Virus record (IMG/VR): IMGVR_UViG_3300032270_001390 | Coordinates: 1 to 46,405 of that record | Source of the DNA: a virus | Lineage: Duplodnaviria; Caudoviricetes | DNA: 46,405 nucleotides | Strand: one strand, 5' to 3' | Shown here: positions 7,507-41,152 of the stretch, in pieces | How the letters are laid out: every line of letters starts with the position of its first letter | How positions within the stretch are numbered: position 1 is the stretch's first letter | Made by a program: the position numbers and the translations under genes | Notes under the pieces: model-generated | The model's input: only the letters and a program-made list of their open reading frames with translations | What the model was told of the DNA's origin: nothing | Database searches by the model: none

Positions 7507-8379
7507 TTATCCTATCCCCAAATTTTGAGTAGTTTTCTTTTCTTGAAATTGAGGAGAATATTTTTTATACAATAAACGAGGTTGACCATATAAAGGGAAT
7601 GGACCTGCTGTTGGACCTTTTCTAGCTTCTACATGATATGGTCCTACATAATCTTTTCCATCTGTTGTAACCAATTCATTACCATTAGTGTATAAATTAT
7701 TTTGGGGAGTATATGAATAAAATTGCAAATAATTATATTTTAAATATTCATCTAAACCTTTAATATTTTGGGAAGATTGTAAAAATTGAACTACATTTTG
7801 GTTTTGTTTAAATGTTCTTTCTAAATTTCCATTCAATGTCCAATTAATAGAATATATAGTATATAAATCAGCAGCAGTCTCTTGGGGTTTAGTAGTGTAT
7901 AAATCAAATGATGTTTTGTTAGTTTCTATATACACAGAATCATTATTTTTTCTAGCAAAATATCTAACAAATAATCCATTAGTATAATCATCTTTAGTAG
8001 GAAATACTGTAATTTTTGTAGGAAGAGTTCTAGGAGTAAAATTTAGAATTTCATCATTAATTTGGGCATAAGCATATGATGAAGTAGTAAAAGAATAAGT
8101 GTTAAATGAAGGTGCAAAAGGGGTTGAAAATATATTTAATATTTGATTTTGAGTAGTATCTAAAACATTATCAGTGTATGAAGATGTTGTAAAGGTAGGA
8201 GTAAATAAAATAATTTCCTTAATAGGAGAATCATATTGATTTCTTCCTGTATAGTATCTCCCAGTGTACAGTTTATGGTAATATCCAGTGTATGATTTAT
8301 CGGTATTCTCTGCATATACAAACTCAGATCCGTCTGTATACAGATTAATGATTATTTTATTTTTAGGTATATATGCCAT
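7507..8379 (-). CDS. Hypothetical baseplate-region protein
   Basis: Last gene of the baseplate unit; NLYTxGxE...YxGxYH motif present twice; PTxxDYxxG..RYF motif. Confidence 0.65.
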   Translation of the reverse strand: MAYIPKNKIIINLYTDGSEFVYAENTDKSYTGYYHKLYTGRYYTGRNQYDSPIKEIILFTPTFTTSSYTDNVLDTTQNQILNIFSTPFAPSFNTYSFTTSSYAYAQINDEILNFTPRTLPTKITVFPTKDDYTNGLFVRYFARKNNDSVYIETNKTSFDLYTTKPQETAADLYTIYSINWTLNGNLERTFKQNQNVVQFLQSSQNIKGLDEYLKYNYLQFYSYTPQNNLYTNGNELVTTDGKDYVGPYHVEARKGPTAGPFPLYGQPRLLYKKYSPQFQEKKTTQNLGIG

Positions 8380-8380
8380 T

Positions 8381-9025
8381 TTATACTAATAAATACTGAG
8401 GAAAATACTGGGTGAAAAATAGTTTTGCCTCAGAAGATAAAAGTTTATTAGTAGACAAATATTCATTTATCTTGTTTATCAGTTGAGGTAAAGAAAATGA
8501 AGTTTGGCCTTGGTATCCTGATTGGGCTAGTGAGGGAAATAATTTATTTAAAGATATGATAGCTTTATTCCATTCACCTGTTTTTAAGTATGGGACTGCT
8601 CTTTCTAATAATACTATACATGCATTATCTTGGCTTATAGGAGTAAAATCATTTAAATTATATTGTGTAGCTATGGTATTCCATGTGTTTGCTAAAATTT
8701 GATATCTTCCAGCAGCTGTAGAAAAATTATTAGGATCATCATTAGGTCCTTTTCTCCATTTAATAAGAATATTAGGATGATTTTTTAGGTTATTATCTCC
8801 TTGAATATAACTTCTACCCCATTTTTCTAAAGTATTAGGTTTCCCATAAGAAACATAACTTCCAGTGTATTTAGTAGTTCCATCTGAAGATATCCCCCAT
8901 ATAAGTAGGTTATATCCTATAGATTCATTTTTAAAGTCAGTTCCTTCACTCCAAGCAATTAGGTCTAAGAATACTTGAATTCGTTGGAACAATTCTTGAT
9001 TATTTTTTATAGGTATGGAATTCAT
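8381..9025 (-). CDS. Lambda R-type lysozyme / lytic transglycosylase, probably tail-associated
   Basis: FLDLIAWSEGT (catalytic Glu), STAAGRYQILANTW, DFTPISQD, PSL motifs of the lambda endolysin family. Confidence 0.9.
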   Translation of the reverse strand: MNSIPIKNNQELFQRIQVFLDLIAWSEGTDFKNESIGYNLLIWGISSDGTTKYTGSYVSYGKPNTLEKWGRSYIQGDNNLKNHPNILIKWRKGPNDDPNNFSTAAGRYQILANTWNTIATQYNLNDFTPISQDNACIVLLERAVPYLKTGEWNKAIISLNKLFPSLAQSGYQGQTSFSLPQLINKINEYLSTNKLLSSEAKLFFTQYFPQYLLV

Positions 9026-9028
9026 ATA

Positions 9029-12000
9029 TTATTTTTTTCCATTTTTAGGTGCCCCTTTACTTTTTGGTGTAGGTGGAGGAGGTGGGGGAGTACTATCTAT
9101 ATTTACTTCTAAAACAGTACCTTGAGCAGCCGCTACTGTATTTGTTCCAGGGAGAAGTGCTTGTAGTTCTTCACTTCTTTCTGATTTTACGGTAATGCTT
9201 TCTATTTTAGTAGTCCATTTGTTTGTGGTTATATTATGAGATATACCTTTAATTAAAAAGTCAATAATACCCTGTTTTAAAATACTTTGATTAGCAGATA
9301 CAACTTCTCTAACACTATAAGTAGGAGGCAATAAATTTTCAGTGATAGCAAAACGTTCATAATTTCTCATACCTGATAATCCGTTCATATCTAATGATAG
9401 GTTGAATGGTAAGAAAAAGGGAGCAGGCATTTTCTCAGATAATGCCTCATATCCTACTATAAAGGCTGATATGTCTTTATTTATGTCTGTTAAACCTGAG
9501 GTTAGATCGTTATCTAATAAATATTTTCCTGAGTAAATGTTATCTACAAGACTCTTTTGGGTTTTAAAATTATTTCCAAATATAGTATTTGGGTCATTTT
9601 TAGATCCAGATGCTGCTGCTGCTGTCATATCTGGGTCTAGTTTTTGGGTAATGATTCTATCTGTTAATCCTTTATTAAGTTTAGAAATAGCAGTAGCATT
9701 TTCACCTACTATATTACCCGAGGATTGGGCAGATATAGTTGCCATAGCGGCCATATTTGGAGGAATATTAACAGTAAAATTAACATTATTTATAAAGCTT
9801 CCCCATAAAAGATCACCATCTACAAAACTATCACTTGTTCCTTGAGTATTATATATAGAATTTGGATTTTGAGTAAGACCATAAACATTAAACGTTGAAA
9901 TTTCTGTCCCTTCCTTAACTTTTCTATACTGTAAAGGGTTTTCCTCAATAATTCTAATACTGTTATTATCAGCATCATAGTTAATACCCATTCTATTTAC
10001 ACCACCTAATGCTTCATTTACTCCATTTAATATGGCTTGTAAAAATGCAATTAAACTAGTTCTTCCATCTTTATCTGAGTTATCAACTAAACATTGGGTG
10101 ATAAAATTAATATTAAGATATATATTTAAAGGATTACCTAAATAAGGATTACCATTAATTAAATAACCCTTAGGAGAAAAACATTCATCTCTAGTAAGAG
10201 TATCAGCTAATAAATTTAATTTAGGAAATTTTCCATTTCGTGCTGCTTCTTGTATATCTTTTAAATCTTCGGGGTTGTCATAATATCTAAATGGAATCAC
10301 ACATACATTTGGGTCAGCAGACATTTGATTTGGGAATGATAAACAAAAGGTATTAGTAGTATCTATATCCATATTTATAAATGGAACTCCAATAACATCT
10401 CCTGTAGCACCTCTAGAAATAGAATTAGGGCTGTTTTGTTTGGTTAAATCATAAACTAAAAGCTCACTTTTAATATAACCAAAAAGAACCCCCATTTTGA
10501 TATAATTTTGGTCAAATAAAAAAGTACCAGCTCCCCCACTATTTTGTTTAAATGGAATTCTTATAAAAGGTTTATCAATTCCTATAGAGTATGGTGCAAG
10601 GGCGGTTTCAACATCTGATATTTTAGGTACTCTATATATAAAATCATATAACCAGCGAGTAAGAGAGCATCTATTATAGTTTTGTAAAATAGCATTAGCG
10701 CTATATACTCGAGTTTGTTCAAGTCCTTTAACAGCTGCTATTTCTCTACTTATAGCAGAAGATGCTGCTGCAATAGATGATTTTAATTTAGTAATATATG
10801 TTGCTAAAGCATCTCTATATATCTTTGCAGGAGAGTCAGTAGATGGAACTTTTAGTGAAAAACCATTTTCAAGAAAATCAGGTGTATCAGCTTTTGAAGG
10901 TTCAAATTCATCAAATAAAGTTAATGGGGTAGGAGTTTCTTCTGAAGATCCACCAGCAAAATTAAAGGTGCCTTGTGGGGGTGGTGTTTTACTATTTATT
11001 ACGTTTTGAAATGTTGGAGAATCAAGTTTATCCAGGGCATTTTTTAATTGATTTAAATATTCAGTATTCCCTTTTGGATTATCAAAATCAAATTCTATTA
11101 ATGATGTACCTGTTAAGTATTTAATATAATTTCCGCCCTCAAGATCTAAATAAGAATTAGCCTGGTCTATTAAATTATCTAAAGCATCACTGGTTTTTGT
11201 TTTAGCAGCTGAAGCTATATCTACTGCAGAATTAGCAACTTTTTCAGCATCTGGGATTTTTTCTCCTCCTCCAGATCCCTTATTAACTTTTAATGATTCT
11301 ACTATGTCTCCTAACCCTACTAATTTAATTTCTATATCATATCCGGAGTTATTATAAGTCCAACTAAAGTTAGTAACTTTACCAATCATAGCATCATAGT
11401 TGTAATCATGGTTAGCTCTTTCAGCTTTGATAGAGTTAATTATTTTATTTTGATCTACAACCATACTTACACCATCATTAAAAAATGCTCTGAATGGTTC
11501 TGTAGTGAAATCTTTAAAAAAGGATAGTGTACCGTTATTATTAAAATACGCAGTGTGACCCCATTCTAATAACATAGTATATCCTACTCTAAAATAAAGA
11601 ACATCTAAAATTTGTAATTGTTCTATACTATTAGCTTTTAATTTAATAGTAGCTTTTGCTAATGCTCCCCTATTATAATATGATATATCTGCAGCTTCAA
11701 TAGCAGGCATAGGTCTGTACCCGGATTCTAATCCTCCCCATCCATATGCTCCATTATTAAAAGTTGGGACTTTACCTGTTGCCATATCAGGAGATGCTAT
11801 TCCTGCTGGCATTATAGGTGCAAAAGTTGTTTCTTTTTGGTTACCCGCGCTAAGATATGATGTTTCTTCTATAGAAACAGCACCCCCAAATAACACGCAT
11901 TTTTTAGCTAAACCAGATCCTAAATATTGTTTTACATCTGTAACACCTGTTAAAAATGGGAGTTTTTCAATTCCATCTTGTCTTTCAGTTAAAGCCTTAT

Positions 12001-12172
12001 TATCTAAATTAATAGAAGATGCTAATCTTAAAAATGCAGTACTTGAATTATAACCTACAATTTCATCAATATTACGATTAAGCTTTCCTAATTTCCTTTG
12101 TCGAGTTTCTATTTGATTTCTAACTTCAGGGTCAAAAGCTTGCCCTGTAATGTTTCCGGATGTTTTGCTCAT
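9029..12172 (-). CDS. Large baseplate hub/spike-associated protein (gp27-like, putative)
   Basis: Baseplate cluster position; RPMPAI, LEWG, YDAMIGKVTNFSW, LSLDMNGLSG, W.TKI motifs; Pro-rich C-terminus. Confidence 0.6.
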   Translation of the reverse strand: MSKTSGNITGQAFDPEVRNQIETRQRKLGKLNRNIDEIVGYNSSTAFLRLASSINLDNKALTERQDGIEKLPFLTGVTDVKQYLGSGLAKKCVLFGGAVSIEETSYLSAGNQKETTFAPIMPAGIASPDMATGKVPTFNNGAYGWGGLESGYRPMPAIEAADISYYNRGALAKATIKLKANSIEQLQILDVLYFRVGYTMLLEWGHTAYFNNNGTLSFFKDFTTEPFRAFFNDGVSMVVDQNKIINSIKAERANHDYNYDAMIGKVTNFSWTYNNSGYDIEIKLVGLGDIVESLKVNKGSGGGEKIPDAEKVANSAVDIASAAKTKTSDALDNLIDQANSYLDLEGGNYIKYLTGTSLIEFDFDNPKGNTEYLNQLKNALDKLDSPTFQNVINSKTPPPQGTFNFAGGSSEETPTPLTLFDEFEPSKADTPDFLENGFSLKVPSTDSPAKIYRDALATYITKLKSSIAAASSAISREIAAVKGLEQTRVYSANAILQNYNRCSLTRWLYDFIYRVPKISDVETALAPYSIGIDKPFIRIPFKQNSGGAGTFLFDQNYIKMGVLFGYIKSELLVYDLTKQNSPNSISRGATGDVIGVPFINMDIDTTNTFCLSFPNQMSADPNVCVIPFRYYDNPEDLKDIQEAARNGKFPKLNLLADTLTRDECFSPKGYLINGNPYLGNPLNIYLNINFITQCLVDNSDKDGRTSLIAFLQAILNGVNEALGGVNRMGINYDADNNSIRIIEENPLQYRKVKEGTEISTFNVYGLTQNPNSIYNTQGTSDSFVDGDLLWGSFINNVNFTVNIPPNMAAMATISAQSSGNIVGENATAISKLNKGLTDRIITQKLDPDMTAAAASGSKNDPNTIFGNNFKTQKSLVDNIYSGKYLLDNDLTSGLTDINKDISAFIVGYEALSEKMPAPFFLPFNLSLDMNGLSGMRNYERFAITENLLPPTYSVREVVSANQSILKQGIIDFLIKGISHNITTNKWTTKIESITVKSERSEELQALLPGTNTVAAAQGTVLEVNIDSTPPPPPPTPKSKGAPKNGKK

Positions 12173-12183
12173 AAAACTATTGA

Positions 12184-12525
12184 TTATCTATTAGTAAATA
12201 CATTATTAAGTAAATAATATGAATTTAATACGTCTTGTAATAAAACTGGGATTCTTAGTTGTGACCCTACAGGTGGTAATAGAGAATTTTGTTTTAGGCT
12301 AGGATTAGCTATTGATATTACCCACCATAGTGAACTATCGTTATAAAATTGATCAGCCAATAAATCTAATCGATCCCCATCAGTAGTAATTACTTGAATA
12401 TCATTTGATGATAAAGGAACAGCAGGGTATTTAACAGTAGCTAAAGCAAGTCTAGGTTTAGCTAGTGTAGAATTATTTGTTGGGGTAACAACTGTTGTTT
12501 TTATATCAGCATATCTAGAGGCCAT
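12184..12525 (-). CDS. LysM/gp53-like baseplate wedge protein
   Basis: GDRLDLLADQFYNDSSLWWVISIANP...GSQLRIP signature. Confidence 0.85.
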   Translation of the reverse strand: MASRYADIKTTVVTPTNNSTLAKPRLALATVKYPAVPLSSNDIQVITTDGDRLDLLADQFYNDSSLWWVISIANPSLKQNSLLPPVGSQLRIPVLLQDVLNSYYLLNNVFTNR

Positions 12526-12540
12526 AGTATATTAATTTAC

Positions 12541-12549
12541 TATAAATAT
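12541..12549 (-). promoter_or_regulatory. Putative late promoter ATATTTATA (LysM/baseplate unit)
   Basis: Recurrent motif, 15 nt upstream of ATG at 12525. Confidence 0.7.
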
Positions 12550-12592
12550 GTCCAAAAGCCAAGCTTAATTTATAACTAAGGAATTATATTAC

Positions 12593-14605
12593 TTAAAAAT
12601 CTAGACCCCCACCTATTGAATTTGATAAATCTCCAGCTGATGTACCAATTGCATTTCCAGGAGATGCATAAGCGGAAGGAGGAAGTGGGTTAAAAAATTT
12701 AGTTCCTATAGTTTTTGATATATTATCTACTCCCATGTTAATAAATGGAGCATCAAAAATAGTACCAGTAGGATTTTTACCATCAATCCATTCTTGATTA
12801 AGAGTTTTAGGTAAAAACGTATGAATGGGAACAAATTTAAATCCACTAACTGTAATACCTTGAGGTAATGCTAATGATAAATTAGTATCTTGGGTTCTTT
12901 TTCCTTCTTCGTCTCTTCCTATATCCCATGAGTATTCATCGGGAACATCAAATGAAAATCCTTGTATAATTCCGGGTTGGTTTACTAAATAATCCCCTAA
13001 TGTAATTTTTACTATATTACCTCTCATAAATCCAGTAGTAAAGGTTTGATTTCCTCCTCCTGAGAATGAGGAATAGTTAGGAGCAAGTAATGATGCAAGA
13101 TAATTTAGTTTTAAATACATACTTTTTTGTTCTGCTCGAGAAGTAGCAACTACTGTAAAGTTAAATCCAATACTTCTTGCAAACCCATTATATGTGTAAA
13201 AGTTTTCTCCTCTACCTGTGTATTTGAAGGTAGCCCAATCTGCTTGATAATCATCCTTAAAACCATTTATATATGCTCTAAAGTGTATGTAATTACTTTT
13301 TGTAGGATTATCTAGATTAATTACAGCTATATGAAAAGGAATAATATCTTTATCTGATAAAACAGGGTCTGGGGCGTCACTTGAGTATATAGGTGAATAG
13401 GTAATTTGATCATAAGTAAGACCTAAACTATTATCTGGTTGTAATGGGGCGTATGAACCAACAGGGTTACTTCTATTTAAACCTTCTTTACCAGGATAAT
13501 TAAGACCATATGTAGTTTCTCTGTTAAACTGAGCATAATTAGTATATGTTAATGTTTTAAATGCTGGGGAGGATGTTGATTGTGGTTGTTCATCTACTAA
13601 AAATCTTCTAAAGTCAAATACGGTTGTTACAGGATTATCTGCAAATCCATATTGTGTACTGTATTTACCAAGATTTTTACTAGTTAACACATTAAAATAA
13701 GCATTGTTTCCTCCAACTTGAGTAGCAGATCCAATTTGAATATTTCCTCCTGGGTCGTTTGACCAAGCAGTAGTATCTGTTGCTTTTCTATAAACTTCTA
13801 ATGGGCCATTAGGTCCTTCAGGATAATAAAATAAATTTTGATCATTTAAAAGAGCAATATTAAAGGCTTGAGCAGCTGCTAAACCTAGTCCTCCTGGGGT
13901 AGCGTTGTTTATTTTTAAAGACCATAATAATCCTAATCTGCTAGTATTAGTATTAGCAATAAAGTTACCTATACGTGCAAACAAACCTCCTCCTCCTTCT
14001 CCTCTTGGTCTTTGTTGAACATTATTATAAACATATTGAGTTTGATACTCATAAGAAGATACAGGGTCAAATAATGATCCTTGGATTCTTCCGGCTAATG
14101 CTAAACTAGCAAGTTGAGGTTCTAGTAGTGAATCTAAATTTATACCAGGTAAATTAGATAAACCCTTCCCACGTTCATGTAATCCTGTAGATCCTCCTGC
14201 TAAATTAATAAATAAGTTTTTAGTGTCATAAACCGCACCGGGTTTGATTGTTGAAGGAAGTTTAGATTGTTGTTTATATAATTCCTTTTGTTTATCTAAA
14301 AATAAACTAAACGCCGGGTTATTAGGATCATCTATAAATCTAGATATTCTTTGTAAATTAGTAGATACAGTAGATAAATAATTTCCTCCTCCTCTTAATA
14401 AATAATCTTTACCAGGTAATGAATTGGCAGAATCAACTTGAGGTATAGGAACTTGTATATATGGTTGTCCACTAGATCCTCCTGCAGGTTGGTCATTTCC
14501 ATATGGATGAGTTTTAGCAGAAAAATTCCCTAACCCTCCTACATATCCTTTTGATTGGTAGTAATAAAAATTCTCTAAATTTGTAACTAATTCTACTAAT
14601 GCCAT
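12593..14605 (-). CDS. Baseplate / tail-tube initiator protein (gp48/gp54-like C-terminal domain)
   Basis: C-terminal FRAYI..F.D.Y.A.W...YTGRGENFYTY.GF.RSI.F.F and LNYLAS...P, ITLGDY...PG; typical tube-like baseplate domain. Confidence 0.65.
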   Translation of the reverse strand: MALVELVTNLENFYYYQSKGYVGGLGNFSAKTHPYGNDQPAGGSSGQPYIQVPIPQVDSANSLPGKDYLLRGGGNYLSTVSTNLQRISRFIDDPNNPAFSLFLDKQKELYKQQSKLPSTIKPGAVYDTKNLFINLAGGSTGLHERGKGLSNLPGINLDSLLEPQLASLALAGRIQGSLFDPVSSYEYQTQYVYNNVQQRPRGEGGGGLFARIGNFIANTNTSRLGLLWSLKINNATPGGLGLAAAQAFNIALLNDQNLFYYPEGPNGPLEVYRKATDTTAWSNDPGGNIQIGSATQVGGNNAYFNVLTSKNLGKYSTQYGFADNPVTTVFDFRRFLVDEQPQSTSSPAFKTLTYTNYAQFNRETTYGLNYPGKEGLNRSNPVGSYAPLQPDNSLGLTYDQITYSPIYSSDAPDPVLSDKDIIPFHIAVINLDNPTKSNYIHFRAYINGFKDDYQADWATFKYTGRGENFYTYNGFARSIGFNFTVVATSRAEQKSMYLKLNYLASLLAPNYSSFSGGGNQTFTTGFMRGNIVKITLGDYLVNQPGIIQGFSFDVPDEYSWDIGRDEEGKRTQDTNLSLALPQGITVSGFKFVPIHTFLPKTLNQEWIDGKNPTGTIFDAPFINMGVDNISKTIGTKFFNPLPPSAYASPGNAIGTSAGDLSNSIGGGLDF

Positions 14606-25530: not shown

Positions 25531-25767
25531 CTATTCAGGAAGAGGTGGTTCTGTAATTGGGGGTTCAATAGAAATATTCTCATCAATATCTTCTATTATA
25601 ATAGATTCTTGATATTGTTGTCCATATAATTCTAAAGCAATAATAAGTTCTTCTTTAGTGCTGTAAAAAAATAACTTAGGTTGTCCGGTTGTTATTTGCC
25701 ATTCTTCTTCTATTGATCCATAATGGAATACATCTATTTCATTTGTTGCTAAGTACCATTTTATCAT
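25531..25767 (-). CDS. Small hypothetical protein coupled to the DUF285 gene
   Basis: ATGA overlap with the upstream stop; MIKWYLATNEIDVFHYG...TTGQP. Confidence 0.6.
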   Translation of the reverse strand: MIKWYLATNEIDVFHYGSIEEEWQITTGQPKLFFYSTKEELIIALELYGQQYQESIIIEDIDENISIEPPITEPPLPE

Positions 25768-27668
25768 ATTTGTCCTCCGTCTACTATTGTCCAACTATTA
25801 GGTGGTGATGTTAATATTGCTCTTGAAGCTGAGGCAGCGGATGTGTATTTAATTGTTCCAAAATCAATTGATATGTTAGGTTTAACAGATTGGGAAGCCC
25901 ATCCTATTAAAATATCATCATAGTTTAAAGTTGAATAATCATTAAATGTTTTACTTGTCATAAATGAAGATGCATTTGACATTGAGGTTATTTTCCATCC
26001 TCCTAAAGGTTGATTAAAAGAAATAGCATTTAAAAATGTTTGACTAGCATTTGTTAAGTTAATTGTATTCCAATTTCGAATAGAATTACTTCCACTATTA
26101 TTAAATTGACTAGCACTTCTAGGTAAACCATAATTGTAAAATAAACCTAAAGATGATGTAAGAGCAGATACATTCCATAAACCTACTTCTTGGTTAAAAT
26201 ATGGTTGGCCAGTGAACATGAATCCCATGTCTCTTACTTTACTTACATTCCAATTTTTAATAGAAGGATCTCCACCATTATTAAATACACCATCTCTAGG
26301 CATACTACTTGGGTGGTTAAACATATGAAACATATTTGTAACATTTGATGTATCCCAAGATCCTATATTTTGGTTAAAATTAGATTGCCCTGCGAATAAA
26401 TAAGACATATCGGTTACTTTGCTGGTATTCCAATTATTTAATGGTTGGTTAAATGAACCAGTAGTTGCTCCATAAAACACAGCTAACATTGCATTCATTG
26501 CTGTAACATTTCCAACATTCCAACTCCCAATAGGTTGATTAAATTGTGGCGCCCCATAAAACATAGCAAACATATTAGAAGCACTAGCTACATTCCAATT
26601 TTTAATAGAATCACTTCCTCCATTATTAAATGAGCTAGTTCGAGTAGCACTTGCACCAGCAAATGCATAATAAAATGATCTTACTTTACTGACATCCCAA
26701 GATCCTATATTTTGGTTAAAAGCATAGGCCGAGTAAAACATAGTTGTCATATCTACTAAATTAGGTGTAGTCCAACTATTTATCGGCTGGTTAAAACGAG
26801 AAGCAGAAGAAAACATAGATGACATGCTGATAGCTGATATTGGTCTCCAGTTATCTAAAGGTTGGTTAAAATTACTATAGCCAAACATAAAGCTAAAATT
26901 ACTAGCACTACTTACATTCCAACTTTCAATAGGTTGATTAAAATTAGAATTATATAAAAATGTTTGACTAAATGAGGTTACTTTACTAGTATCCCAATTT
27001 TTAATAGAATCACTTCCTCCATTATTAAATGAGTGAGTAAAAGTAGCATTTGCTGATCCAAGCATATTAGCCATATTAGTAGCATTACTTGTATTCCAAT
27101 TACCTATATTTTGATTAAATCTATAGGTAGTATAAAAAGTTTGACCCATATTACCTACTTTACTAGTATCCCATTGATCAAGTCTACTAATAGTAGTAAG
27201 TAACGAACATGATCTAAATGTAGCTGAGAGAGAAGCACTAAGTGTTGGGTTTAGATGTTTAGTGTAAAGATTTGGGGTATCAGATATATTATTTAAAGTT
27301 AAAGCATCGCATCCATAAAATTGGGCTCCCTGGGATGATAGTTTTAACCCACCCCACTGTGATATATTGATTATTTTACGTCTATCTCTACCATTATTAA
27401 AAGACCACCCATTAATATGGCCACTCATAGTTACATTATAAGTTCCAGCAGTAGCATAAGAATGTGTTACTTCAGGTTGTAAAGCAGATGATATTGAGCT
27501 ACTAGTGTTATCGCCCCAATACACCATAAAATTATATGAACCACTTACAGTTAATGGTAATACAATTTGATTAGCAGCACTTGAAGTTTGAGATAAATTA
27601 TCCGTCTTCCATGTTGATATGAAAGGTTTAGGTTTTGAATTTACTACACTTCTATTTGCTCTAGCCAT
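25764..27668 (-). CDS. DUF285/BspA-like leucine-rich-repeat surface protein with N-terminal PKD-like domain
   Basis: Many FNQ(P/N)IGxW(D/N)xSxVTxMxxMF repeats; YWGDN...THSYATAGTY PKD-like segment. Confidence 0.9.
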   Translation of the reverse strand: MARANRSVVNSKPKPFISTWKTDNLSQTSSAANQIVLPLTVSGSYNFMVYWGDNTSSSISSALQPEVTHSYATAGTYNVTMSGHINGWSFNNGRDRRKIINISQWGGLKLSSQGAQFYGCDALTLNNISDTPNLYTKHLNPTLSASLSATFRSCSLLTTISRLDQWDTSKVGNMGQTFYTTYRFNQNIGNWNTSNATNMANMLGSANATFTHSFNNGGSDSIKNWDTSKVTSFSQTFLYNSNFNQPIESWNVSSASNFSFMFGYSNFNQPLDNWRPISAISMSSMFSSASRFNQPINSWTTPNLVDMTTMFYSAYAFNQNIGSWDVSKVRSFYYAFAGASATRTSSFNNGGSDSIKNWNVASASNMFAMFYGAPQFNQPIGSWNVGNVTAMNAMLAVFYGATTGSFNQPLNNWNTSKVTDMSYLFAGQSNFNQNIGSWDTSNVTNMFHMFNHPSSMPRDGVFNNGGDPSIKNWNVSKVRDMGFMFTGQPYFNQEVGLWNVSALTSSLGLFYNYGLPRSASQFNNSGSNSIRNWNTINLTNASQTFLNAISFNQPLGGWKITSMSNASSFMTSKTFNDYSTLNYDDILIGWASQSVKPNISIDFGTIKYTSAASASRAILTSPPNSWTIVDGGQI

Positions 27669-33055: not shown

Positions 33056-34816
33056 TTATGATGGATATATTCCGAAACTATATTGGTTAACTTGAGGTCC
33101 ATTCGCTACACTAGTACTAACTTGTAATGATATTTCAGCGCCTAGTGCAACTGATGCACTGTTAATTGTATTAGAATATAAACCAGCTGCTTGTCCTCCA
33201 GATATGTTTATTTGAATATTTGTAGCTACACCATTAACTCTAACAATAAATGTAGTAAAACTAGTAGCAACAGCGGCACCATTAGTTCTTATATAAATAT
33301 TTTTTAGTAACCCGGCAAATGGAGATGCTATTTGGCGTTGTGTTTCAGTACCAGATACAGTTGTAGTTCCAAATGGTAAATATGTTACTACAGGATTTGT
33401 AAAACCCGTACCAGCATAGTTACCAAATATAGTAGAGCCGAGTAATGAAGTTGTTAATATATTTCCACTAGTATCTACACCTAACATTGCTACTTCAGTC
33501 CCGGGAAATGCTCCTGATCCTGTGTAAGCAGGTAATGCCATTTGTAGATTATTCATACTCCACCAAGCAGCTTCACCAACACTCCCAGCATTTGTGCCTT
33601 TTAATACTCTAAGTCTATCTTGATAGAGATCAATCATTGAAGCAGAAGTATAAGTACCACCAGGAGCACTGAATCCAAGTTGACCTCCTTCATTTACACT
33701 ATCACGTGCTCCTAAGGTTAGTGTGTTTTCGGATGGCCCTAAACTAGATGATCCTATAACTGCACTACCTGTTATTATTATATTTTGGTTTAATGTGTTA
33801 ACAAATGATGCTGTAAGTGCATTTGATGATGATAGTGCGGCAAAATTAGATATTGATGATATAGATGTGCCAAGGCTATTTCTTAATTGAATACTTCCCA
33901 CAGAAAGCTGGACTATTGTAGCTCCTAGTGTATCTGAGTATGATGCTGTGAGTGCATTTGATGAAGTTATAGCTCTTGAAGAAGATATAGCTTGAGAAGC
34001 ACTTTGAGCCCAACTTGAGGTTACTAGATAAGTACCGGGGTTGAGAAATGATGAAGTTGATGCAAATGAAGCGCTTGTTATTGATCCTAATAGTAAAGAT
34101 GCTGTTAATGCAAATGATGATGTTATTGCTCTAGAGGCAGATATAGCTTGAGAAGCACTTTCAGCCCAAGATGCTGTTCCAAATAAACTTCCTGTTAATG
34201 ACCCGGATGCTCTTAATGCTAATGAAGCTGTAAGTGTATTGATTTGGGTTAAAACTGTAGCATCGCTACTAAGTAATGCTAATCCACCAAGTGAAGAAGT
34301 TTGTAAACGTTCACCTAATTTTGTCGAATAAGAAGCAGTTAAAGCATTTGTAGCGTTATTAGCCCAAGATGCGGTCCCCTCTAAAGAAGCAGATATTCCA
34401 CCTGAAGCTGTAATTGATGAGTTTGATGGGTTTATTATAATGTTTACTCCATATAAACGTTCTTCTGTAAGTGGTGAGTTAAAGGAGTCAACTGCGGTTA
34501 AATAAAAAGGAGCATTAGTAGTAGATCGTTGATTTAGTATCACGGAAGCAGTTACAGCACTAGTTGCCCACGATGCTGTTCCAATTAAAGCACCAGTTAA
34601 TGACCCTGTAAATGAAGAAGTAACTGAGGTAGCATTTATCGAGCCTGTTATAGCAACGCTTCCAGTTACTCTTAATGAACCTGTTATTACAGCACTACCA
34701 CTATATGGAAATGGGTTACCACTACTTCCACCTGTTAAAGCATATGATGCTGTAGTAGCAAATGAAGCAGTATCAGCATTTATTAGGTTATTATTTATTT
34801 TAGTTATATTAGCCAT
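33056..34816 (-). CDS. Ser/Thr/Ala-rich fibre protein (TAS/SAS/TGS repeats)
   Basis: FPYSGSAVITGSL, GSLxGTASWA, ALTASY repeats; distinct beta-rich C-terminal domain. Confidence 0.75.
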   Translation of the reverse strand: MANITKINNNLINADTASFATTASYALTGGSSGNPFPYSGSAVITGSLRVTGSVAITGSINATSVTSSFTGSLTGALIGTASWATSAVTASVILNQRSTTNAPFYLTAVDSFNSPLTEERLYGVNIIINPSNSSITASGGISASLEGTASWANNATNALTASYSTKLGERLQTSSLGGLALLSSDATVLTQINTLTASLALRASGSLTGSLFGTASWAESASQAISASRAITSSFALTASLLLGSITSASFASTSSFLNPGTYLVTSSWAQSASQAISSSRAITSSNALTASYSDTLGATIVQLSVGSIQLRNSLGTSISSISNFAALSSSNALTASFVNTLNQNIIITGSAVIGSSSLGPSENTLTLGARDSVNEGGQLGFSAPGGTYTSASMIDLYQDRLRVLKGTNAGSVGEAAWWSMNNLQMALPAYTGSGAFPGTEVAMLGVDTSGNILTTSLLGSTIFGNYAGTGFTNPVVTYLPFGTTTVSGTETQRQIASPFAGLLKNIYIRTNGAAVATSFTTFIVRVNGVATNIQINISGGQAAGLYSNTINSASVALGAEISLQVSTSVANGPQVNQYSFGIYPS

Positions 34817-34824
34817 AAATTATC

Positions 34825-37014
34825 TTATTGTTCAAACCAATCATTACTTGGTCTAAATTTCATTGCCCACAAATTAGCACTTGGTGTACTTTGATAATAA
34901 ATATGACCTACTACTCTTACAAATCCTGTTGTTGGTTGTGTGGTTGTCATCTCTCCAAAAATATCAGACATATATACAGGTCGCCCATAGCTGGCTGAAA
35001 CAACATATGCTCCTTGGCTATTATCATCACTTACTCCTATATCACCTTCTAATAGCACATATCCTGAGCCTGTGTCTACGCATATACCCTGCATTTGTGT
35101 AGCTCTAGTTACGTTATTATTTCTTGTTTGGTACCAAGTACCATTTGTGTCTAAAAATACTAAATTGTAATTTTGCACAGATGTATGTATAGATGCTTGA
35201 ATTATTTGACCTGTATATGTTGGGGTATCTACTAGTTGTTTTTGAACTTGAGCTGAGATTATATTGCGGTAGTAGAGTTGGCTATTTATGTATGTGTCGT
35301 TAGAATAATTAAGAGCTTCAAATACATTACCAGGTTCGTAAAGTACTCTATTTGTCCAATCTATACTAGCGCCTACATCGTCATATAAAAATTTGTTTTC
35401 CCAATCAACAACATTAATTCCAGTTGTAGTGTTAAGATAACCATTAATCCAATCTACCTTTGAGATAGAACCTGGGTTAGATAATATTCCATTAAGTGTA
35501 TCTATTCCTCCTGTAGATCCCGATACTACTAATGAGCCTGTGATTTTAGCTGCTCCTATAAATGGGAAAGCTGATCCACCTCCTGGGGCCCAGGAAGCAG
35601 ATGTAGCCCAACTAGATGTGCCTAATAAACTCCCAGTAAATGATCCTGTGAATGAAGATCCGGTTATAGTAGAGGAGGAAACACTAGTGATAAATAATTT
35701 ATTTGTAGATGGGTTAAAGTTAATTATAGATGAGTCTGAGTATAGGAATGCATTTCCAAGTGCTGTGCTAGCAAAAGGTATAGGGTAGAAAGTATTAGTA
35801 GAAATATTAGGATCAATACCTATTGTAATAGAGTAATCAGCAATAGATGCTTGGGAAGATGAAATTGCTCTAGAAGATGATAATGAATAAGAAGCAGATA
35901 TTACATTAGCAGCCCAACTTGCAGTACCAAATAAACTTCCTGTTATAACTGTAGGAGATCCTGCAGTGCCTATAATACCTACAGTTAATGTGTCTACAAT
36001 AGGATTATAAGTGAAATTATTAAGTTCAGCATATGCAATTTGAGATCCAGTAGAAGTAACAAATAAAATTTCATATGCTCCTGGGGTTGAGCTTAAATCT
36101 GTTACTTCTATTCTTTGAGCTAAACCTGCTGTTACAGCATATGAAGCTGATGTAGCATTGGTTATACTTCCTGAAAAATAAGATGCAGTAGATGCAAAAG
36201 ATGCACTTATAACATTATTAGCCCAACTTGATGTTGCTACAAAGGATGCAGTAGAAGCAAATGATGCACTAACAGCATTTAATATATAAGAAGCAGTTAT
36301 GGCTTGAGATGCACTTACTGCCCAACTAGCAGTACCAAATAAACTTCCAGTAAACGATCCTGTAAATGAGGACCCAGTTATAGTAGAGGAAGATATATTA
36401 GGGACAAATAGTTTGTTAGTAGATGGGTTAAAATTAAATATTGAATCACGATTTACATCAACTGCTAGTCCAGCGACATTAGCAATTAAAACTTCAAAAA
36501 AAGCATTAGTAGTAGTGTCAGAAGTAACATTTATCTTATTAGCGGTAGTAGCAGTATCTGCTCTTGAAGATGAAATTGCTCTAGAAGATGTTGTATTTAA
36601 AAGATTATTTATAGGGACAAAACTTAAACTAGAAGAATATGTAAAAAGTTCTGAGTTAGTATCAGTTTCTCTTACAAATATTACGGGAAATGAGTCAGTA
36701 AGGTATGTTGTTTGTTTTACTGAAGAAGATAAGGCAACAGATGCTGTGTTAGCAAAGGTAGCATTACTAATACTTCCTGAGAAGAAAGATGCTGTAAGAG
36801 CATATGAAGCCGATATAGCATTACTTATACTTCCTGAGAAAAAAGATGCTGTAAGAGCATATGAGGCAGTAGCAACATATGAAGCAGTATCAGCATATGA
36901 AGCAGATATAGCATTGCTAATACTTCCTGAGAAATATGAGGCTGTAAGGGCTAAAGATGCTGTGTTTGCTTTTAGAGCAACTAATGCTATATTAGATGTA
37001 GTAGTAATTCCCAT
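34825..37014 (-). CDS. Ser/Thr/Ala-rich fibre protein (SASYA repeats), paralogous to its neighbour
   Basis: ASYALTASFFSGSISNA tandem repeats; duplicated FNPSTNKLF..SSSTITGSSFTGSFTGSL; VDW repeats; C-terminal RVVG...F.PSNDW. Confidence 0.75.
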   Translation of the reverse strand: MGITTTSNIALVALKANTASLALTASYFSGSISNAISASYADTASYVATASYALTASFFSGSISNAISASYALTASFFSGSISNATFANTASVALSSSVKQTTYLTDSFPVIFVRETDTNSELFTYSSSLSFVPINNLLNTTSSRAISSSRADTATTANKINVTSDTTTNAFFEVLIANVAGLAVDVNRDSIFNFNPSTNKLFVPNISSSTITGSSFTGSFTGSLFGTASWAVSASQAITASYILNAVSASFASTASFVATSSWANNVISASFASTASYFSGSITNATSASYAVTAGLAQRIEVTDLSSTPGAYEILFVTSTGSQIAYAELNNFTYNPIVDTLTVGIIGTAGSPTVITGSLFGTASWAANVISASYSLSSSRAISSSQASIADYSITIGIDPNISTNTFYPIPFASTALGNAFLYSDSSIINFNPSTNKLFITSVSSSTITGSSFTGSFTGSLLGTSSWATSASWAPGGGSAFPFIGAAKITGSLVVSGSTGGIDTLNGILSNPGSISKVDWINGYLNTTTGINVVDWENKFLYDDVGASIDWTNRVLYEPGNVFEALNYSNDTYINSQLYYRNIISAQVQKQLVDTPTYTGQIIQASIHTSVQNYNLVFLDTNGTWYQTRNNNVTRATQMQGICVDTGSGYVLLEGDIGVSDDNSQGAYVVSASYGRPVYMSDIFGEMTTTQPTTGFVRVVGHIYYQSTPSANLWAMKFRPSNDWFEQ
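36761..36950. repeat. 57-bp-period coding tandem repeat
   Basis: gcatt(a/g)ct(a/t)atacttcctgagaa...gctgtaag occurs three times (about 36761, 36818, 36911). Confidence 0.8.
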
Positions 37015-37030
37015 TAGATTGATTATCTGT

Positions 37031-37039
37031 TATAAATAT
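37031..37039 (-). promoter_or_regulatory. Putative late promoter ATATTTATA (fibre unit)
   Basis: 16 nt upstream of ATG at 37014, abutting the phoH stop. Confidence 0.7.
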
Positions 37040-37725
37040 CAATCTCTATATTCTTGGTAAAGTTTAAGGATTGGTTCTACTATTTCGTGACGATGATTAG
37101 TTTTTAATGTTACTACTTTTACTCCTTTAATTTCTGATTCTAGGCGAGTAAAAAAGCCAATACCGCTATCTTTCTTTTGTTTCAAATCGGTTTGAGTTAT
37201 ATCACCACAAAATACCATTTTTCCACCTTTACCTAAACGACCTAACATCATTTCAGTTTGACCATGAGTAATATTTTGACATTCATCTACTATTACAAAA
37301 CAGTTAGGGAATGTTCTTCCTCGCATAAATGCAAAAGGTACAATTTCAATTTGATTTTCAGCAACCATTTTATCTACTTTATCTTTATCATAAAGTAAAT
37401 GTAAATTAGCATATATTGGAGCTAACCATGGATCCATTTTTTCTTTTAAATCACCTGGTAGAAATCCAATATCTTCTTTTGCTACTGTGGGGCGTGTGAT
37501 TACAATTTTCTCAACTTCTCTTTTAAAAACCATGTCTAATGCTATTTGACATGCAACTAATGTTTTACCAGATCCTGCCATTCCTTTTATTAAGGTGACT
37601 GGGTTTTCTAGAATTAGTTGTTTTGCTTCTTTTTGTTCACTATTAAGTTCTATTTTGAATTTAATGGGGTTTTTAGGTTTTCTTTTGTTTTGAAATACCT
37701 CATCATTGTAATCATTTGAAGCCAT
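37039..37725 (-). CDS. phoH: PhoH-family ATPase
   Basis: GMAGSGKT, TRP, GFLPGDLKEKMDPW, FMRGRTF, DECQN, RLG, GD..Q.DL, RH.IV. Confidence 0.96.
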   Translation of the reverse strand: MASNDYNDEVFQNKRKPKNPIKFKIELNSEQKEAKQLILENPVTLIKGMAGSGKTLVACQIALDMVFKREVEKIVITRPTVAKEDIGFLPGDLKEKMDPWLAPIYANLHLLYDKDKVDKMVAENQIEIVPFAFMRGRTFPNCFVIVDECQNITHGQTEMMLGRLGKGGKMVFCGDITQTDLKQKKDSGIGFFTRLESEIKGVKVVTLKTNHRHEIVEPILKLYQEYRD

Positions 37726-37726
37726 A

Positions 37727-38449
37727 TTATTTGTATATTAGTTTAATTAATTTATCTACTCCTGCTTCCACGTGCGTGGTATCAGAATGGATAAGCTCGA
37801 AGTTATAGCGCTTATCTAACGGTAATACCAAATCTACTTGGCTGCCCCAACGTATTAAACTAAATCTATCATTTTGAGATACTAATGAGTTTTGATCATG
37901 TATAAAATGAGCAATAACATCAACATCTTCATCTGCAATTTGAATTAGATAGTAAGTATAATCTAATCTAGGAGAATAGATTTTATTAAACATACGTTCA
38001 TTATTTTTTAAATAATCAATCATATGTTTAGGGTTAATAGCTGCATTTAAAATATCTTTTTCTAGCGCTAACATTGGTTTATTCATCGATTCTATTGAAT
38101 CCAACGGCTTCCATGTAATATGACCTCCATACGGTATACGGTTTATATGAACGTCATAAAACGACATAAATATGCCTACTACTAAAGATGGTTGGTTATA
38201 ATCTTTATCACCCATAACATCTTTTAAAGTGTATTTTTTACCTTTAACTTCAACTACGGGTGCATTAGAATCTTCTATATATTTTTGATACAAAATAGTA
38301 CCATCTGCTGGTGAGTAAAAATGCTCATTATCTATATAATTAGGACGCATTGGATCTCTAAAAAAGAATACGCTTCCTAATTCATCTACAGGTAATTTTT
38401 CTAGTTTGGCTACATCAGTATCCAACCATTCTTCCATTGACTTTGCCAT
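37727..38449 (-). CDS. psd: Phosphatidylserine decarboxylase-family pyruvoyl proenzyme (substrate uncertain)
   Basis: FFRDPMR, SPADG, IFMSFYDVHINRIP..G, NER, QIA, IRWG/SQVDL self-cleavage site (38-aa alpha chain). Confidence 0.85.
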   Translation of the reverse strand: MAKSMEEWLDTDVAKLEKLPVDELGSVFFFRDPMRPNYIDNEHFYSPADGTILYQKYIEDSNAPVVEVKGKKYTLKDVMGDKDYNQPSLVVGIFMSFYDVHINRIPYGGHITWKPLDSIESMNKPMLALEKDILNAAINPKHMIDYLKNNERMFNKIYSPRLDYTYYLIQIADEDVDVIAHFIHDQNSLVSQNDRFSLIRWGSQVDLVLPLDKRYNFELIHSDTTHVEAGVDKLIKLIYK

Positions 38450-38455
38450 AAATTA

Positions 38456-39367
38456 TCAGATTAAAGTTTTAGTATAATCAACATAATTTAAATGCATAAA
38501 CATACAGCTTAATAAAGCACCTGATTTCATGTATTCTGAGATGTTAAAGATAATAGGTTCCATACCTTCTTTAGCACATATACTTTCTAGTGTATTAACC
38601 TTATGGCGTTCTAGATCATATAGTTCATCTGTTTTCTTTAATTCACTAATGTTAGAAGCGCATAAAATTGCATTACCTAAACGAACTGAATTAGTAATGC
38701 CACCAAATGCATCATCTTCACTTATATCAATAATATCCGTGTATTTTGATAATACATCTAATTCTTCGGGAGAGTATAACGATGTACAAACCATTGTTTT
38801 ATCTTTGGATACAGGGAATATAGAACAATCCAAGTGATATAAATACTCTTCTACCATTTCAAGTGGAATGATATTCATGTTAAAGTTTTCACCCATCCAA
38901 TCATATGTTTCTTTTTGAGAACGGATACCATATCCTCCAACATAGGTGTTACCATAAAGATATTTTAAATCTGCTTCACCTTCCCATTTATGTGGGCTAA
39001 TATGAGTTTTATAACCCATCATATTAAAGAATTTTTCACCAACGTGTTCTTCACCTTGTCTAGGTTCTGAGGTGTAGTTAGATAAAAGGATTGTATTTTC
39101 TTTAATGTGAGGTAAATATATACCTAAATTAGCTACATATACTTGGTCTTGGAAATTACCTTCAGATGGTAATAAATAGCATAATCCTGATCCTGCTACA
39201 AAGTTGTAAACATCTAGAAATTGACGGTATGCTTTATTTCGATCAACTTTTATTTCTTCAGGGCTTAATTCTTTCATCCATATGTTATTTGGATTTGAAG
39301 TATCCAAAGTAAATGGAAAGTTCATTACATAACTAGGAATTGAAAGTTGAGATGGGGTTTCTTTCAT
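38456..39367 (-). CDS. Pentein (amidinotransferase/DDAH fold) enzyme, ArgZ/AgrE-like arginine dihydrolase motifs
   Basis: NIWM, DQVYVANLG, RQGE, WEGEAD, GIRS, YHLDCS, EYMKSGALLSCM (Glu-His-Cys triad). Confidence 0.85.
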   Translation of the reverse strand: MKETPSQLSIPSYVMNFPFTLDTSNPNNIWMKELSPEEIKVDRNKAYRQFLDVYNFVAGSGLCYLLPSEGNFQDQVYVANLGIYLPHIKENTILLSNYTSEPRQGEEHVGEKFFNMMGYKTHISPHKWEGEADLKYLYGNTYVGGYGIRSQKETYDWMGENFNMNIIPLEMVEEYLYHLDCSIFPVSKDKTMVCTSLYSPEELDVLSKYTDIIDISEDDAFGGITNSVRLGNAILCASNISELKKTDELYDLERHKVNTLESICAKEGMEPIIFNISEYMKSGALLSCMFMHLNYVDYTKTLI

Positions 39368-39388
39368 TTTATATAGATTTTATTTTCC

Positions 39389-39397
39389 TATAAATAT
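39389..39397 (-). promoter_or_regulatory. Putative late promoter ATATTTATA (pentein-PSD-phoH unit)
   Basis: 21 nt upstream of ATG at 39367, downstream of the MCP terminator. Confidence 0.7.
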
Positions 39398-39439: not shown

Positions 39440-39469
39440 AAAAAAGGCCGGAATAAATCCGGCCCTTTT
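39440..39469 (-). terminator. Intrinsic terminator after major capsid gene
   Basis: Minus strand GGCCGGA-TTTAT-TCCGGCC followed by TTTTTTATTTTTT. Confidence 0.88.
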
Positions 39470-39487
39470 AATTATTGAGGTATACTA

Positions 39488-41152
39488 TTAAAGAGTATTT
39501 AAACCATTTACATAGATCTTACCATAGAATTCAGGACGTAACATTTTCTTAGCGAAACGAGTCATTAAACCTTTACGTGGTGTGAAGGTATCTGGGTCGT
39601 ACACTAGAGGAGTCATGATCAACGGAATGTATGGAGCGAATACAGCACCTGCTTCTAAGAATTGAGTACCACGGAAACCAACTAAAATAGTGTTTTCAGT
39701 CATATATGGGTTCTTATAAACATTGTACTTGCTATTCAAGTTACCAGCTTTCTGTACACCAAATGCATATTGCATTTTAGAAGCATTACCATCAGAATTT
39801 GAAGCGAATCCAGGGATTGATTCAATAATAGTAGATACTGTTGGAGAACATACTAAGAAGTTAGCACCACCACGAAGAGTCAATTGGTGAATCTTGTTAC
39901 TTAATTTTTGTAATTTAGTACCAAGAGTTTGGAACCACTGACCTTGAGTGTTGTAGAAACCTAAGTTAGCTGTTGGTAATGAAGTAGCTGAAAGGGTAAC
40001 GTTGTTAATAGCTGACCAGTATTCAATATTGGTTGCAGGAACGTCTTGGATCAACATATCTAAGATTTCTAGATCAATTTCTAATGAAATGTACTCAGAC
40101 ATGATGCTAGTTAATTCAGCTTCAGCATCTAATGCTTGGTAAGCATTCAAATCTTGAGCGAATTCAGGTGTCCAAACTGCCTTTAACTTTTTAGTCTTAG
40201 CAACGATAGCCTCAGAACGCATTTTAACGTTAACTTCTGGGATTACAATTGTAGAAGCACTAGCAGAGTTAGGAACAGCGAATGAACTTCCATCTTCAAA
40301 ATCACCTACGTTATATCCAGGAGTACCTCCTAAAGCAGTAGCTTTAGTATAAATCACAAAGCTGTTTGCAGCAGCTGCAGTACCGTTAGTTTGAGCGGTT
40401 GAGCTTGTGTGGAAGAAGTTAATAACAGTGCCATTAGCAGTTAATGATGTAAATGCAGGTAACAATGTACTTACTGTTTGGGTTGAACCAGAAGTCATTA
40501 TAAATCCACGAATTCCTTCAGCATCGTAACTTGGGATCAAAGATGCAGAGAAAGAGAATTTCTTAACTTCACCTGCAGCTGCAGAAGCAGATAAATCAGA
40601 ATCGTAGTTTACTTCAGCCCAAGATCCTGAAAAAAGTGTTGCTCCAGTAACTATTGTAGAAGATGTTTGGTTGGTAGAGTAAGTGAAACGACCAGCACCA
40701 TATAAACCACCTACAGGAGATGGAGTAGCGAATGGGTATTGGCTTCCAGTATTACCATACATTGAGTTGTTCACGTTGAATGGATTCTTTGAGCTTCCAT
40801 ATTGAAAATCCAAATAGAATACAAGACCTGAAGGTAAGTTCATTGGTTGTACACTAACGAATTCTTTAGCAGCAATTTGTCCGAATACTTTACGAACTAA
40901 TGGTAAAGCGATTCCAGCCCACTGCTCACCAGTACCAGCTGTAAATGCACCGGTTCCACCAGTTGCAGAAGTTTCAACTACTAATTGCTTTGCTTGATTC
41001 TCAAGCATAAGAGACATGTTATTTTTGTCGGTTTCTTCTAAACCTTCCAAAAGCCCTGTCTTGGCCCATTTGTTTGCTAATCTAGCGGCGTCGTTTTGTA
41101 AATTTTTCCAGCCACCCGCAGCAGACTCTAATAAATTTTGAACTGTGCTCAT
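39488..41152 (-). CDS. Major capsid protein (T4 gp23-like)
   Basis: LPLVRKVF, VSVQPMNLPSGLVF, AKTKKLKAVWTPEFAQDLNAY, DAEAEL, EIDLEI, APYIPL, F.PRKGLMTR. Confidence 0.96.
   Translation of the reverse strand: MSTVQNLLESAAGGWKNLQNDAARLANKWAKTGLLEGLEETDKNNMSLMLENQAKQLVVETSATGGTGAFTAGTGEQWAGIALPLVRKVFGQIAAKEFVSVQPMNLPSGLVFYLDFQYGSSKNPFNVNNSMYGNTGSQYPFATPSPVGGLYGAGRFTYSTNQTSSTIVTGATLFSGSWAEVNYDSDLSASAAAGEVKKFSFSASLIPSYDAEGIRGFIMTSGSTQTVSTLLPAFTSLTANGTVINFFHTSSTAQTNGTAAAANSFVIYTKATALGGTPGYNVGDFEDGSSFAVPNSASASTIVIPEVNVKMRSEAIVAKTKKLKAVWTPEFAQDLNAYQALDAEAELTSIMSEYISLEIDLEILDMLIQDVPATNIEYWSAINNVTLSATSLPTANLGFYNTQGQWFQTLGTKLQKLSNKIHQLTLRGGANFLVCSPTVSTIIESIPGFASNSDGNASKMQYAFGVQKAGNLNSKYNVYKNPYMTENTILVGFRGTQFLEAGAVFAPYIPLIMTPLVYDPDTFTPRKGLMTRFAKKMLRPEFYGKIYVNGLNTL

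Follow-up and report, generated by a model that had tools for sequence, protein, structure and literature searches.

The locus described here raises the question why a phage keeps a pentein enzyme and a pyruvoyl decarboxylase of the phosphatidylserine decarboxylase (PSD) fold side by side downstream of its major capsid gene, and what the two make together. It lies in the IMG/VR record IMGVR_UViG_3300032270_001390, of which the whole stretch of 46,405 nucleotides was analysed (the window). The record is 28% complete, and this 46-kb piece belongs to a T4-like myovirus with genes for the gp23 capsid protein, sheath, tube, gp32 and helicase. The two genes are:

38456..39367, minus strand: ArgZ/AgrE-like pentein of 303 amino acids, a guanidino-group-modifying enzyme, PHROG 12759
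37727..38449, minus strand: PSD-fold pyruvoyl decarboxylase proenzyme of 240 amino acids, PF02666, PHROG 12670

The answer that we favour, with a rough probability of 0.45, is that late in infection the pair converts arginine into an oligo-guanidino polycation, namely a short agmatine chain, likely as counter-ion for DNA packaging. Putrescine, reached by one of two routes, is also a plausible product and is the simplest reading of the folds. The genes, their folds, the conserved active-site residues, the pairing and the neighbouring genes are documented below, and they agree on a module whose product is likely a cationic amine derived from arginine.

The pentein

The initial annotation of this locus quoted the motifs NIWM, DQVYVANLG, RQGE, EGEAD, YHLDCS and EYMKSG..SC from the pentein, all of which are in the translation, and named the arginine dihydrolases ArgZ and AgrE as its closest relatives. 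Sequence and structure comparisons agree with this assignment. AgrE and ArgZ are the only significant sequence matches in the PDB, at an identity of around 20%, and the top ten Foldseek matches of the predicted structure (predicted local distance difference test, pLDDT, 92.4) are all ArgZ/AgrE entries, with E values of about 5e-22 to 1e-21 and template modelling (TM) scores of 0.78-0.81; DDAH proteins rank next, followed by amidinotransferases. The model, an alpha/beta propeller, places the protein in the pentein or guanidino-group-modifying superfamily. The AgrE site residues N22, D65, F68, N71, R90, E118, R139, H168 and D170 correspond to N28, D74, Y77, N80, R103, E129, R149, H178 and D180 of the phage protein. 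Judged from the C-terminal motif, C288 would be the counterpart of ArgZ C264 (the AgrE alignment ends earlier). PDB entry titles confirm the importance of ArgZ N71 and C264. The roles of the other matching residues are presumably those in ArgZ and AgrE, with R103 and R149 taken to bind the substrate carboxylate.

Conservation was assessed in 165 distinct near-full pentein sequences, 87 viral and 78 bacterial or metagenomic. Nine residues (N28, D74, N80, R103, E129, R149, H178, D180 and C288), among them the complete pentein catalytic set E129, H178, D180 and C288, are present in all viral sequences and in 69-78 of the others; Y77 is kept in 85 viral sequences and replaced by Phe in 2. The Asn of the AN motif, to which the initial annotation had drawn attention, is N80 at the position of ArgZ N71, and it occurs in 87/87 viral and 75/78 bacterial sequences. 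Together with the two substrate arginines R103 and R149 it gives the residue pattern of ArgZ and AgrE, whereas DDAH, arginine deiminases and amidinotransferases have Asp at this position. The bit scores against DDAH_eukar (21.6, cut-off 23) and NF045659 (82, cut-off 300) stay below threshold. Distinctive of the family is an additional acid, E131, at the place of AgrE A120, which is found in 87/87 viral sequences and as Glu or Asp in 78/78 bacterial ones.

If the pentein were an arginine dihydrolase (arginine to ornithine, CO2 and two NH3), the PSD-fold partner could be a new kind of ornithine decarboxylase and the product putrescine. The match at each of the nine AgrE site positions that the alignment covers (F68 as Tyr) and the ArgZ/AgrE entries that fill the Foldseek top ten argue for this route, whereas a score of 70 bits against the NCBIfam arginine dihydrolase model NF052232, with a cut-off of 450, argues against it. 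We find the ornithine route doubtful, also in view of the neighbouring genes discussed below.

A pentein with an N-terminal extension of 180 amino acids is encoded in a distant phage locus (L339:3715-5154). There, a GIY-YIG endonuclease gene stands between pentein and decarboxylase, and the extended pentein lies directly ahead of head-morphogenesis, protease and capsid genes.

The decarboxylase

The partner is a PF02666 protein of the short type (Pfam PS_Dcarbxylase, E 6e-23) and, as originally annotated, an intact proenzyme: its translation contains the cleavage motif RWGSQ, with cleavage predicted at G202-S203. Among 94 full-length proteins from the 150 listed representatives, H101 is kept in 92 and G202 and S203 in 91. 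In place of the QIAG-x-x-ARR of 6 housekeeping Psd proteins, the family has QIAD-x-D/E, with D173 (kept in 91/94) and D/E175 (84/94) as the acidic residues; 4 other actinobacterial Psd proteins do not have the QIAG-x-x-ARR motif. The corresponding patch of pssA-linked Psd is basic, which makes a lipid substrate for the acidic version unlikely; a cationic small molecule may be bound instead.

The marks of a short-type phosphatidylserine decarboxylase, namely a hydrophobic N-terminus, the QIAG..ARR motif, linkage to pssA and a score above the model cut-off, are absent from the phage protein. Its N-terminal hydropathy maximum is 0.51 (at most 0.59 in the family, n = 94), as compared to 1.39-2.27 in 9 short-type Psd proteins; since 3 long-type Psd proteins score 0.24-0.89, hydropathy by itself does not settle the matter. 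The protein falls short of every NCBIfam Psd cut-off, no pssA gene adjoins the decarboxylase in the loci examined, and 3/4 bacterial carrier genomes possess a separate psd. A quick tree separates 46 family rows from 10 housekeeping rows by one branch (SH-aLRT 81). The PDB holds no sequence match for the decarboxylase. Its model (pLDDT 84.5) fits best to the beta chain of E. coli Psd (TM about 0.5, E 7e-6) and more weakly to PsiD (E 6e-4) and Ao-ADC1 (E 3e-3); the matches are all weak because the solved chains are cleaved. The kinship with ArgZ on the one hand and with the PSD family on the other, suspected earlier from the sequence, thus recurs in the predicted structures, weakly so for the decarboxylase.

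An ordinary phosphatidylserine decarboxylase next to an unrelated auxiliary gene would agree with the Pfam assignment, with the database labels of the homologues, with E. coli Psd as best fold match and with the decarboxylase being the sole PF02666 match in one carrier genome (G004). We consider this highly improbable: besides the exchange of the basic motif for an acidic one, the missed cut-offs, the separate psd genes and the missing pssA neighbour, the pairing of the two genes persists through reversal of their order and through unlinking. On the grounds of pairing, separate psd and acidic motif, a lipid enzyme and chance neighbours were both rejected, in line with the non-lipid reading of the initial annotation.

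Several members of the decarboxylase family are parts of larger proteins. P0249 joins the domain to an anti-CBASS domain of Acb1 type, P0250 combines it with Alt-like ADP-ribosyltransferase and ParB-like domains, and P0262 adds a long tail without known identity; these fusions resemble virion-packaged multi-domain proteins. LAGLIDADG inteins interrupt P0244 and P0383. A further candidate, P0342, which joins a DnaJ-like part to the C-terminal part of the decarboxylase, was set aside as a chimeric assembly.

Pairing and distribution

Conservation of the pair, on which the initial annotation had made its reading depend, is borne out by a survey of gene neighbourhoods. In IMG/VR, the genes are adjacent in 76/80 decarboxylase-seeded and 64/69 pentein-seeded loci, two sets that overlap and include near-copies; one further locus has a gap of 757 nucleotides, and all 8 misses lie at most 66 nucleotides from a contig end. 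Adjacent genes were likewise found in 75/80 metagenome loci, with 2 more pairs about 300 nucleotides apart and 3 loci on short contigs, and in 23/23 actinobacterial loci. The partner was present in every examined locus with room for one, in two cases with the genes apart. The bacterial gene order is reversed compared to that of the phages, and the order capsid-pentein-decarboxylase-phoH is kept across IMG/VR relatives at about 70% identity. In L161, which is related to the Bacteroides phage genes, pentein and decarboxylase are encoded on opposite strands with about 1.6 kb between them. Two-protein fusions were looked for and discarded, as none of the long open frames in 14 loci contained both domains.

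Among 50,697 phage records, those matching both genes are Campylobacter and Bacteroides phages. The decarboxylase matches 45 GenBank phage records (39 Campylobacter, 6 Bacteroides) and the pentein 47 (40 Campylobacter, 6 Bacteroides and a Xanthomonas phage protein with 21% identity annotated as DDAH). Bacteroides phage DAC19 has the two genes next to each other; in Fletchervirus NCTC12673 about 42 kb separate them. The notion of a phage pathway is too narrow: besides cultured phages, soil bacteria carry both genes, and the system is not phage-specific. In bacteria the module is patchy, with 18/401 genomes of one actinobacterial family (17 without the unpublished G466), 1/401 genomes of the class of G001 and 1/301 of the family of G004, the single genome being the seed in the last two samples. 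A close relative of the phage studied here was found in a Flavobacteriales bin (L154). This bin was rejected as a host source of the genes, since a search of 301 genomes from its phylum gave no match besides the seed contig, which has the phage gene order.

In another explanation, the amine would serve DNA or virion modification, or a virion-delivered counter-defence or host takeover, rather than bulk packing. The fusions to Acb1 and to ParB-like and Alt-like domains and the extended pentein in the L339 head-gene cluster would fit such a role, as would the replacement of deoxyguanosine by deoxyinosine in Fletcherviruses described in the available part of PMC13091555. However, no DNA-modifying gene recurs beside the pair in the loci examined, the fusions are a few of 150 representatives with contig context known only for one unfused relative, and the Fletchervirus paper mentions neither an amidinotransferase nor a decarboxylase. 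A link to the deoxyinosine modification was dropped, as the one paper searched gave no support. A modification or takeover role seems quite unlikely to us.

Neighbouring genes and the product

Exporters are frequent neighbours in bacteria. A MATE gene follows the pair in at least 49/80 metagenome loci (the open reading frame (ORF) filter missed some, for example L158, and many other loci end at the pair), and of 14 actinobacterial loci scanned, out of 19, 7 have an ABC exporter next to the pair, as do three Amycolatopsis loci (L155-L157). In the latter, and in L275 and L277, an AguA-like deiminase follows the exporter; a PRMT5-like methyltransferase stands beside the Amycolatopsis operon (weak match, E 6e-5 to 4e-4). 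The operon in L231, L232, L237 and L238, probably from one organism, contains the pair, a MATE gene, an unannotated gene, a pyridoxal phosphate (PLP) decarboxylase, a gene that by eye resembles an amidinotransferase (without Pfam match), a methyltransferase of arginine-methyltransferase type and a flavin amine oxidase. Ketosynthase and acyl-ligase genes adjoin the pair in L276 and L289. The phages have their own agmatine-deiminase-like subfamily, which adjoins the decarboxylase in 13/14 loci (4 of them seeds; 9/10 non-seeds) and stands beside both genes of the pair in 11/14; it is encoded, unlinked, in 6/6 Bacteroides phage records and matches 6 unannotated records without the pair. In L421, a DUF3326 gene (7897-9252) comes directly after the pair, and a portal protein is fused to a topoisomerase IB domain (9938-12913).

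The GenBank entry for the Fletchervirus decarboxylase carries a note of similarity to AF210249_12, which we take to be a gene of the bleomycin cluster; the B-series bleomycins end in agmatine units. The gene orf28 of this cluster is named, without description, in PMC7017467. The tail of saskemycin, according to the part of PMC12637814 available, consists of five N-methyl-agmatine units, and its cluster encodes an arginine methyltransferase and an amidinotransferase.

Because of the exporters, the arginine-methyltransferase-like neighbours and the agmatine-deiminase-like third gene, the bacterial context and this third gene speak for a guanidino product no less than for putrescine. The ornithine route can still draw on the polyamines of phage virions (PMC7226272, in the portion available) and on the possibility that the pair replaces spermidine synthase, an S-adenosylmethionine decarboxylase (AdoMetDC)-type enzyme and a PLP-type ornithine/arginine decarboxylase, none of which was found in 5/5 phage genomes tested. 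It gives the deiminase-like enzyme no substrate, however, and leaves exporter and constant pairing unexplained. Phages carry other ornithine/arginine decarboxylases, as stated in the available text of PMC10407285, so that strict pairing would hardly be required for a simple arginine-ornithine-putrescine route.

Putrescine might alternatively arise via agmatine, with the PSD-fold enzyme as arginine decarboxylase and the pentein hydrolysing agmatine or deiminase-made N-carbamoylputrescine. Ao-ADC1 of Aspergillus oryzae, a PSD-fold arginine decarboxylase according to the accessible part of PMC12904898, is a precedent, and it corrects the initial annotation, which knew no decarboxylase of this type in polyamine synthesis. 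The three-gene form moreover parallels the chlorovirus enzymes ADC, AIH and NCPAH (PMC9992855, available portion). The agmatine route is nonetheless unlikely, as exporter and strict pairing stay unexplained. Agmatine has no alpha-carboxylate, whereas the pentein keeps the two arginines that we assume to bind this group.

For the favoured agmatine chain, the following cycle is proposed. The decarboxylase would cleave itself at G202-S203 and take CO2 off arginine or an arginyl chain end to give a primary amine. The pentein would bind arginine via the conserved carboxylate site, form the covalent Cys intermediate of ArgZ type with loss of ammonia and pass it to the amine rather than to water, yielding an N,N'-disubstituted guanidine; E131 could hold the incoming amine. 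Removal of the new alpha-carboxyl group by the decarboxylase would allow the cycle to repeat. In bacteria the product would be exported, with prior methylation or acylation in some clusters, and where the agmatine-deiminase-like enzyme is present it may cap or trim the guanidino end. We favour this coupling cycle because it makes use of the carboxylate site, depends on both enzymes, yields something that bacteria would have reason to export and leaves a guanidino end for the deiminase. Bound material is said to be difficult to remove from Fletchervirus DNA. Some deiminase homologues are specialised for a bis-guanidino polyamine, as far as the available text of PMC13625781 goes. A role of the chain as DNA-packing counter-ion is suggested by the late gene position and by the polyamines present in virions (PMC7226272).

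Several observations weigh against a chain-forming function. We know of no characterised pentein that makes agmatine chains. The closest solved relatives are hydrolases, with amidinotransferases ranking lower (Foldseek E values: SxtG 1e-11, HsvA 4e-11, human AGAT 3e-10), and the Asn kept in nearly all family members is that of the dihydrolases. E131 is replaced by Phe in two near-identical distant phage loci. A direct conversion of agmatine to putrescine would accommodate the deiminase-like gene as well, and neither the three complete relatives of this phage nor Fletchervirus NCTC12673 yielded a match to it. Operons of three genes standing by themselves, not antibiotic clusters, make up most of the bacterial loci, and in L146, L149 and L162 the pair lies among replication, not virion, genes. 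The word decarboxylase is absent from the main text of the saskemycin paper (PMC12637814).

Transcription unit and late expression

The surroundings of the pair in the window comprise these further features:

37039..37725, minus strand: PhoH-like ATPase gene (phoH), 1 nucleotide behind the decarboxylase
39389..39397, minus strand: ATATTTATA, likely late-promoter motif, about 30 nucleotides ahead of the pentein start
39441..39469, minus strand: intrinsic-terminator-like hairpin downstream of the major capsid gene
39488-41152: major capsid gene of gp23 type (Pfam Gp23, E 3e-71)

The order is thus capsid gene, hairpin, ATATTTATA, pentein, decarboxylase and phoH. The two coupled ORFs, 6 nucleotides apart on the minus strand, and the hairpin after the capsid gene were recovered as originally described. 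The pair is tightly coupled, but because phoH comes 1 nucleotide later, before the next ATATTTATA copy, the transcription unit probably consists of three genes rather than the two first proposed. The phoH gene does not belong to the bacterial version of the module.

The motif ATATTTATA, presumably the reverse complement of the T4 late promoter, has 12 copies in the window where 4.79 are expected, a number reached by 1 of 100 shuffles. On the coding strand lie 11/12 copies, of which 10 stand 21-43 nucleotides ahead of the start of a virion-region ORF, and no copy in the window precedes replication genes. Because of this enrichment and placement, ATATTTATA is likely a late promoter. As a motif common to the virion genes, as it was first described, it holds for these 10 copies and fails for the capsid, scaffold and protease genes of the window, none of which has it immediately ahead. 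In related phages, the exact TATTTATA occurs at most 80 nucleotides upstream of the pentein in 32/84 distinct upstream regions; the variant TATGTATA, left out of this count, is present in further ones. In distant phages (L339, L421, L422 and L428) the pair lies among head, connector or tail genes. The motif data make late expression of the pair likely, as had been supposed.

Most genes in the window have A/T-rich leaders and no Shine-Dalgarno sequence upstream, a pattern known from Bacteroidota. A DUF285 repeat protein (25764-27668, E 7e-112) is encoded among neck and tail genes, and two Ser/Thr/Ala-rich repeat proteins of 586 and 729 amino acids without family match (33056-37014) have a ATATTTATA-type motif of their own ahead.

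Implications

Phage polyamine enzymes and both folds are already known. Literature searches, with subscription journals outside their coverage, found no publication on the pair, and in the literature searched the terms phosphatidylserine decarboxylase, amidinotransferase and phage co-occur only through a reference list. Either product would mean new enzymology. If putrescine is formed, the pair represents a polyamine route with a prokaryotic PSD-fold ornithine/arginine decarboxylase. If a polymer is formed, the system would be categorically new, its members would be the first enzymes for the synthesis of guanidine chains (polyagmatine), and this would bear on how antibiotic tails are built. 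More broadly, and tentatively, many unrelated phages may make an oligo-agmatine polyguanidinium DNA condenser by a two-enzyme ratchet, with soil bacteria exporting guanidine chains and building antibiotic tails with the same module and some phages loading the enzymes into the head. The annotation of PHROG families 12759 and 12670, which are of unknown function and labelled as DDAH and lipid enzyme, would need correction. These proposals are directly testable: the two proteins are small, with solubility predicted, and cultured Bacteroides and Campylobacter phages possess the pair.

Comparison with known systems

The pentein shares its fold and the Asn at the N71 position with the dihydrolase domain of ArgZ (Synechocystis Sll1336) and AgrE (Anabaena Alr4995; PDB 6JUY-6JV1 and 6LRF-6LRH). 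Unlike these proteins it stands alone, without a cyclodeaminase domain, possesses the extra acid E131 and always occurs with a PSD-fold decarboxylase.

The closest sequence families of the decarboxylase are the short-type phosphatidylserine/archaetidylserine decarboxylases (PRK05305, TIGR00164), with which it has the His and Gly-Ser processing motifs in common. It differs from them in its non-hydrophobic N-terminus, the acidic patch, the lack of a pssA neighbour and its separate tree branch. Similar to the phage protein as proposed here, Ao-ADC1 (PDB 9JER) and PsiD are PSD-family pyruvoyl enzymes for a free amino acid, with a weak fold match. Ao-ADC1, however, has 483 amino acids, an N-terminal helical region and a GGST site, as compared to 240 amino acids and WGSQ in the phage decarboxylase. 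Because the motifs of the phage decarboxylase belong to the short PRK05305/TIGR00164 type, the two enzymes are probably separate repurposings of the PSD fold.

With respect to the product, the polyagmatine tail of saskemycin is an arginine-derived guanidine chain, as the phage product would be; its chain-forming enzymes are not characterised in the part of PMC12637814 available. The main text of the viral polyamine survey PMC9992855 does not contain the terms phosphatidylserine, dihydrolase, amidino, Campylobacter or Bacteroides. The chlorovirus ADC-AIH-NCPAH-HSS pathway described in its available portion is, like that proposed for the phage pair, a means by which a virus makes its own polycation.
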